NCBI RefSeq assembly: GCF_045037415.1 | Contig: NZ_CP173438.1 | Source: Escherichia coli | GTDB taxonomy: Bacteria > Pseudomonadota > Gammaproteobacteria > Enterobacterales > Enterobacteriaceae | Direction: 5' to 3' (one strand) | DNA length: 64,000 nucleotides | Position numbers and translations under genes: made by a program | In this document: positions 5,754-6,020 of the stretch, piece by piece | Layout of the letters: each line of letters begins with the position of its first letter | How positions within the stretch are numbered: the first letter of the stretch is position 1 | Notes under the pieces: model-generated | Seen by the model: only the letters and a program-made list of their open reading frames with translations | Told to the model about the DNA's origin: nothing | The model's database searches: none

Positions 5754-6020
5754 GCCTGATGCGACGCTGGCGCATCTTATCAGGCCTGTGCAGGGGTAGA
5801 ACCGTAGGTCGGATAAGGCGTTCACGCCGCATCCGACAGCCGTTGCCTGATGCGACGCCAGCGCGTCTTATCAGGCCTGTGCAGGGGTAGAACCGTAGGT
5901 CGGATAAGGCGTTCACGCTGCATCCGACAGCCGTTGCCTGATGTGACGCCAGTGCGTCTTATCAGGCCTGTGCAGGGGTAGAGCCGTAGGTCGGATAAGG
6001 CGTTCACGCCGCATCCGACA
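5754..6020. repeat. BIME/REP cluster: three tandem ~91-bp units, each a pair of inverted REP palindromes
   Basis: Unit GCCTGATGCGACGCTGGCGC...TAGGTCGGATAAGGCGTTCACGCCGCATCCGACA repeats at 5754, 5845, 5936 with a few substitutions. Confidence 0.85.

Follow-up and report, generated by a model that had tools for sequence, protein, structure and literature searches.

BIME-2 elements are defined by z2 and y REPs arranged in tandem, joined by a short linker, S, and present in a copy number that varies between strains, whereas BIME-1 elements occur as single copies and combine Z1 with a long L linker in which an IHF site lies (Ton-Hoang 2012, PMC3333891). One of the closest described systems is REP325, a six-unit BIME-2 between yjdM and yjdN from which the Rfam model naRNA4 (RF02564) was built (PMC4550694), and for whose RNAs HU binding and effects on the nucleoid were reported (Qian et al. 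2015, PMC4550694). This 12-REP BIME-2 of yjdMN has also been described as a partial Rho-dependent terminator and mRNA stabiliser, deletion of which raises yjdN about 8-10-fold and lowers yjdM about 3-fold (bioRxiv 10.64898/2026.03.23.713779). REPs were found to protect 3' ends by 3'-end mapping of Rho-dependent transcripts (PMC6061677) and, in the account given in PMC12306157, a REP within 15 nt of a stop codon stalls terminating ribosomes. The REP325 preprint also reports that terminal REPs are not generally tied to longer-lived mRNAs (bioRxiv 10.64898/2026.03.23.713779). The cvpA-dedD element of K-12 W3110 is listed as a BIME-2 of 83 bp (Sutormin 2019, PMC6379681 Table DS3). Topo-Seq places gyrase cleavage sites in this one-unit copy, two with rifampicin plus ciprofloxacin (RifCfx) and one with microcin B17, the copy being cleaved in only two of four conditions (PMC6379681 Table DS3). 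BIME-2 arrays, their polymorphism, their cleavage by gyrase, their targeting by IS1397 and their effects in 3'UTRs are all matters of published record, and the locus considered here is itself an entry in a published BIME-2 table.

The sequence that we analysed (referred to below as the window) is a 64-kb stretch, 64,000 nucleotides in full, of Escherichia coli contig NZ_CP173438.1. Its dedD-cvpA spacer carries an ordinary three-unit BIME-2 of alternating Z2 and Y REPs, an element of a known kind at an already-catalogued locus (Table 1). Our reading, to which we assign a probability of roughly 0.8, is that this array is a three-unit BIME-2 that probably lies in the 3'UTR of folC-dedD, where it would serve as a hairpin barrier or attenuator and as a gyrase site, and that its units are turned over in register.

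Table 1. Features of the dedD-cvpA region, in window coordinates
Feature	Position	Strand	Remarks
dedD ORF	5064-5744	+	RefSeq 'cell division protein DedD' on identical DNA; stop TAA 5742-5744
BIME-2 unit 1	5752-5842	+	Z2 5754-5785, GTAG 5804-5807, Y 5808-5837; 91 bp
Rfam naRNA4 (RF02564) match	5807-5877	+	79.6 bits; Y hairpin of unit 1 and Z2 hairpin of unit 2
BIME-2 unit 2	5843-5933	+	Z2 5845-5876, GTAG 5895-5898, Y 5899-5928
Rfam naRNA4 (RF02564) match	5898-5968	+	72.7 bits; Y hairpin of unit 2 and Z2 hairpin of unit 3
BIME-2 unit 3, terminal	5934-6024	+	Z2 5936-5967, GTAG 5986-5989, Y 5990-6019; end ...CCGACACGCA
TTGCCCGATGCCGCAAAGGCAT	6025-6046	+	source of the Tandem Repeats Finder "0.1 copy"; 11-nt likeness to a fourth Z2 head
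Intrinsic-terminator-like hairpin and TTTTTATT T-run	6055-6092	+	scan and fold; stem 6055-6084, 12 pairs, -18 kcal/mol
PurR-box-like ACGCAAACGTTTTCTT	6113-6128	+	upstream of cvpA-purF, outside the repeat
cvpA ORF	6185-6673	+	ORF list and RefSeq annotation of matching genomes

Tandem Repeats Finder delimits an array at 5752-6035 with a period of 91, 3.1 copies, 93% matches, 0 indels and a score of 491. The three copies are in register, the second and third being 95% and 90% identical to the first. An earlier reading of the same DNA (the original prediction) had described the spacer as almost entirely made up of three head-to-tail 91-bp units with inversely oriented REPs. The units and their architecture are confirmed, the six palindromes alternating between Z2 and Y, but the extent is not: the array proper (5752-6024) accounts for 273 of the 440 bp of the spacer (62%), the rest, roughly 160 bp, being occupied by the terminator hairpin and the PurR-box promoter region. 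The Z2 palindromes have the form GCCTGATGCGACGC-NNNN-GCGTCTTATCAGGC and the Y palindromes, each preceded by GTAG, the form GTCGGATAAGGCGT-NN-ACGCCGCATCCGAC. In unit 1, Z2 is followed by a tail, CCTGT, that extends to 5789, a tail-to-tail linker (GCAGGGGTAGAACC, c. 5790-5803), GTAG, Y and, as head-to-head linker, AGCCG. Tail-to-tail linkers of BIME-2 are of type s, l or r. With a degenerate Z2 pattern there are three matches in the 64-kb window against 0.00 expected from shuffles, and every match in a fuzzy search of the window with the Y, Z1 and Z2 consensus sequences falls inside the array. The fraction of a fourth copy at 6025-6046 is, on sequence comparison, flanking DNA that resembles a Z2 head and not a REP. 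The allele with no units has it unchanged, and Citrobacter and Klebsiella carry counterparts of it (GTGCCCGAAGAGGCAT).

The element has the hallmarks of BIME-2 as described by Gilson, Bachellier and Hofnung, with which it shares the alternation of REPs, short linker, tandem units, extragenic site after a stop codon, variable copy number and targeting by IS1397. Y and Z2 alternate in inverse orientation, and both hairpins show the characteristic internal mismatches in the Rfam alignment. The head-to-head linker, AGCCGTT, is short (5-7 nt) and recurs in a tandem of three in-register 91-bp units, and the whole array is extragenic, lying between the stop of dedD and the start of cvpA. We found no essential difference from the family, the local traits being the CCTGT tails of the Z2 REPs and the Y variant, GGTCGG...CCGACA, which amounts to a compensated T-A pair relative to the consensus GGCCGG...CCGGCA. 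Like elements of the BIME-1/RIP type, the array pairs a Y REP with a second REP in inverted orientation, and IHF binding has been stated in general terms for some BIMEs (PMC3333891). That it is itself such an IHF-binding element is nevertheless highly improbable: it contains no match to the Z1 consensus in the fuzzy search and no long L linker, it is tandemly repeated where BIME-1 is single-copy (PMC3333891), and no IHF consensus (WATCAANNNNTTR) occurs in or near it, the nearest match in the 64-kb window being at 12303. The suggestion that the array binds gyrase and IHF can therefore be kept only in its first half, which is borne out by the K-12 copy in the Topo-Seq table; the second is inapplicable, the IHF site being a property of the BIME-1 L linker and its consensus being absent here.

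A further likeness is to REPIN/RAYT systems, in which REP doublets are mobilised by TnpA-REP. They have in common with this locus a unit consisting of an inverted REP doublet, Y REPs with GTAG on their 5' side, stems that each contain a mismatch, and edges at C/T steps (the slash, here and below, marking the point of cleavage or joining). The locus differs from them in that no RAYT gene adjoins the array and in that the Z2 REPs of this strain are without the complement of GTAG. Of the features associated with TnpA-REP, the Y REPs have both GTAG and the AA/GC internal loop, and the complementary strand of Z2 reads ACAG, not GTAG. All three Z2 tails (5786-5789, 5877-5880, 5968-5971) are CCTGT and not the CCTAC of the family; the latter, complementary to the GTAG that TnpA-REP requires for binding, is kept in K-12 and many other alleles.

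On the dedD-sense strand the array is predicted to fold into six stable hairpins (-15.6 to -21.1 kcal/mol), with values of -15.6 and -18.8 kcal/mol for unit 1, -21.1 and -17.2 for unit 2, and -20.7 and -18.8 for unit 3; the folding z-scores of the whole region are -7.4 and -8.1 for the plus and minus strands, respectively. Pairing was assessed across 38 distinct units drawn from 14 alleles. The two hairpins were paired in 97.9% of cells, compared with 25-42% in slid controls, and compensated changes were seen at three pairs, a level reached in 1 of 500 shuffles. One-sided changes left 18 wobble cells versus 19 unpaired cells, so that constraint on the RNA and constraint on the DNA are inseparable in these data.

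The two naRNA4 matches, which did not figure in the original prediction, both lie on the dedD-sense strand and exceed the RF02564 gathering score of 59.5 bits; copies on the minus strand and at the array edges score below that threshold. The sole other Rfam match above threshold in the window is nuoG RNA (RF01748) at 35756-35798 (+), which scores 50.3 bits where the gathering threshold is 33. The comparison with REP325/naRNA1-6 at yjdM-yjdN extends to the Y plus Z2 unit, the orientation with respect to the upstream gene, the 3'UTR location within a tandem gene pair and the above-threshold score. The two differ in that REP325 has six units and this array three, that the linker is 6 nt shorter here than in the RF02564 model, and that a conserved intrinsic terminator follows this array. 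The HU-binding data concern REP325, whose own nucleoid role is now disputed (bioRxiv 10.64898/2026.03.23.713779). It could be argued from the two above-threshold units on the dedD-sense strand, together with the HU binding and nucleoid effects reported for REP325 RNAs (PMC4550694), that the array encodes naRNA4-like RNAs, Y-Z2 units processed out of the transcript, that would bind HU, bridge cruciform DNA and condense the nucleoid. We consider this very unlikely. RF02564 is effectively a generic model of the BIME-2 Y-linker-Z2 unit, so that a match indicates a repeat family and not a function; the shorter linker also counts against it. Furthermore, deletion or over-expression of REP325/naRNA4 leaves nucleoid size unchanged, and contacts between REPs are absent in Hi-C, according to a study that includes the original senior author (bioRxiv 10.64898/2026.03.23.713779). 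The matches are thus best taken as membership of the BIME-2 repeat family, and not as evidence of a dedicated sRNA.

The minus strand does contain the open reading frames 5692-5916 and 5822-6046, which had been dismissed as artefacts of the repeat. We concur: they have no Pfam match, are unannotated in the RefSeq genomes examined and depend on copy number. There is accordingly next to no prospect that the overlapping ORFs of the array, three on the minus strand (74, 74 and 56 aa) and two on the plus strand (43 aa each), are genuine small-protein genes. All five do exist as reading frames, but none has a Pfam match at E<=1, on which ground a coding potential of the repeat was rejected, and the RefSeq genomes retrieved annotate none of them. 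Moreover, their length and number shift with the number of units, and they are absent from the 0- and 1-unit alleles that make up about two thirds of genomes.

The neighbouring genes are accD, folC, dedD, cvpA, purF and ubiX, and 9 nt separate the dedD stop from the first REP stem. Beyond the array lie the terminator-like hairpin and the PurR-box-like sequence, the latter of which we take to be the purF operator. Scanning one genome per species for a PurR box followed by a cvpA start yielded 120 Enterobacterales loci, across which the box itself is conserved by construction, as part of the search pattern. In 113 of them dedD was placed, and in 55 of these 113 a strict pattern detects the terminator hairpin at a distance of 96-99 nt from the cvpA ATG. 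Most of the misses inspected (25) have a hairpin in this position with compensated changes in its stem; variants across the Enterobacterales include GGCGTTGAG...CAACGCC and GGCGCTGAA...CAGCGC. Because a hairpin and T-run are kept at a fixed distance from cvpA across the order, 6055-6092 is most likely the real dedD terminator and the 3' end of the folC-dedD transcript. None of the REP hairpins is followed by a T-run, and the scan for intrinsic terminators returned this site, outside the array, as the only terminator-like one. From its position upstream of the conserved terminator, the array is probably co-transcribed with dedD and contained in the folC-dedD 3'UTR. This runs counter to the original prediction, in which the array sat between the end of the folC-dedD transcript and the cvpA-purF promoter.

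In other genera the same slot, from the dedD stop to the terminator, holds genus-specific palindromes (five loci were noted): Enterobacter cloacae has a perfect palindrome of the GGGTTAGGG type, Salmonella enterica arizonae a single Z1-like REP, and Citrobacter one or two pairs of REPs. An enterobacterial dedD-cvpA locus was also encountered in CACSKA010000009.1, labelled Chryseobacterium sp. 18061. The C terminus of its DedD is 91% identical to the E. coli protein, and this assembly is probably contaminated or mislabelled.

That copy number varies between strains, as had been stated of BIMEs in general along with a proposal to count units in other E. coli genomes, holds for the dedD-cvpA locus: it is not invariant, ranging from 0 to 6 units in E. 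coli and from 2 to 7 in other Escherichia. A cumulative census at >=80% coverage with natural 1-, 2- and 4-unit alleles was sound only for the 0-unit junction. With the longer queries many one-unit genomes reached 77-79% coverage, and partly deleted alleles were miscounted; hence counts were taken from two flank-only queries with 60 evenly spaced genomes each (120 in total), in which the span equals a constant plus 91n. A single unit, the state that includes K-12, predominates (78 of 120 sampled genomes, 65%), followed by three and four units (15 of 120, or 12.5%, each). No unit at all was found in 3 of 120 (2.5%) and partly deleted units in another 3 (2.5%); five units occur in 2 (1.7%), two units in 1 (0.8%) and six units in 1 (0.8%). 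The remaining 2 of the 120 rows, split by an insertion sequence, are one record present in both samples. An exact-junction query puts the 0-unit allele at 136 of 5425 genomes, again 2.5%.

At this site K-12 MG1655 carries a single complete unit and no more. Sampled genomes with flanks identical to those of the window all have three units; those with the closest flanks have 0 and 3-6. The whole three-unit allele is matched at >=99% in ~10% of genomes. In O157:H7 there are mostly four units and in one genome three. Two units are present in E. albertii and in E. whittamii, and seven in Escherichia sp. E1V33, whose array, in a spacer of 804 bp, is the longest seen and has several units that share private variants. 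The BIME array of O157:H7 SS52 (NZ_CP010304.1) contains N bases in the RefSeq record; as a sign of difficult assembly or polishing, this means that copy numbers from draft-quality assemblies need care.

The sequences of the alleles indicate how the units may come and go. Alleles differ by exact 91-bp steps. Internal units end in ...CCGACAGCCG (a CAGCCG junction, or CAGTCG in one lineage), the last unit has a distinct end in every Escherichia allele read, usually ...CCGACACGCA, and the single unit of K-12 ends in CACGCA. The K-12 allele looks like a deletion product in which the head of a first unit is joined to the tail of a last one. A simple duplication of the K-12 unit as the source of the multi-unit arrays was rejected, given internal CAGCCG or CAGTCG as against CACGCA in K-12. 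Units within one strain share private variants (GAACAGTAGG in MS20657, CAGTCG in CB209), which argues for recent in-register duplication. The empty allele reads TACGGTC-TTGCC-CGATGCC, and filled alleles carry TTGCC on both sides. Partial alleles, of which four were read, have deletions of 15-35 bp that remove half or all of one palindrome and are found in ~2-3% of sampled genomes; one of them, the odd allele L131, has lost exactly one Z2 REP, between GGTC/T and GGCC/T. As an observation apart, strain JNE25-003 (NZ_AP045053.1, locus ~1283-2720) carries IS1397, of the IS3 family, in the loop of the unit-3 Z2 REP of a five-unit array that is otherwise identical to that of strain CB209, the insertion duplicating TGGC. 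The loop of Z2 REPs is a published target preference of IS1397, as far as the reference list of PMC3333891 indicates.

TnpA-REP cleaves at C/T steps in TGCC/TGAT and GGCC/TAC (PMC3333891), and the edges of the array and of the deletions are compatible with such cleavage and equally with microhomology. One speculative extension would be that the allelic series records cut-and-join of the TnpA-REP type at C/T steps, in place of plain slippage, and that lineage-specific copy number may tune the fate of dedD/folC mRNA or insulate the purF promoter. The exact 91-bp steps, the distinct end of the last unit, the single TTGCC of the empty site and the clean loss of a whole Z2 would fit with this, and we regard it as an unlikely elaboration.

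A more substantial challenge to a local function is that the array might be a neutral or selfish REP/BIME passenger, turned over by TnpA-REP or slippage and with no part in the expression of dedD or cvpA-purF. Much of the variation described above would suit a passenger: the number of units lies anywhere between 0 and 6 and shows no fixed optimum, units may be partly deleted, one allele is split by IS1397, unrelated genus-specific palindromes take the same slot in Citrobacter, Salmonella and Enterobacter, and the array edge and the L131 deletion fall at C/T steps like TnpA-REP sites (PMC3333891). Against this, E. coli, E. albertii, E. whittamii and Escherichia sp. E1V33 have all kept the element at this locus, and pairing of its hairpins is maintained, with some compensated changes. 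In addition, orthologous BIME-2s measurably affect neighbouring genes (bioRxiv 10.64898/2026.03.23.713779) and gyrase (PMC6379681). A neutral origin and a local side-effect are not, in any case, mutually exclusive, and we judge a purely neutral array to be a tentative and somewhat unlikely account.

Our preferred reading, of a hairpin barrier or attenuator and gyrase site, may be set out as follows. The array would be co-transcribed as the 3'UTR of folC-dedD, and its REP hairpins, by analogy with REP325, would hinder 3'-5' exonucleases, partly attenuate read-through towards cvpA-purF, or both. With its first REP less than 15 nt from the dedD stop, the array would belong by its position to the stop-proximal class reported to slow the termination of translation. 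As DNA it would provide a gyrase site, as demonstrated for the one-unit copy of K-12. Units would be gained and lost through in-register recombination or slippage between the 91-bp repeats, with TnpA-REP as a possible helper. A strong role is disfavoured. The element is missing from 2.5% of genomes and reduced to one unit in two thirds, and the array is already followed by a conserved terminator. Also weighing against the reading are the reported lack of a general link between terminal REPs and longer mRNA half-lives (bioRxiv 10.64898/2026.03.23.713779), the cleavage of the K-12 copy by gyrase in only two of four conditions, and a covariation signal that fits RNA and DNA structure alike. The 136 of 5425 genomes without the element, and the ~65% with one unit, point to the extra units being dispensable, and the conserved terminator hairpin could by itself protect the 3' end, making the REPs redundant.

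For annotation, the ORFs of the array should not be called genes, and naRNA4 matches of this kind should carry the label 'BIME-2 unit' in place of that of a dedicated sRNA gene. The length of the array is a lineage-informative but unstable marker. A natural series of 0 to 7 units, situated near the promoter of an essential pathway, would make the locus a handy test bed for the recent proposal that REPs act as tunable 3'UTR dials.
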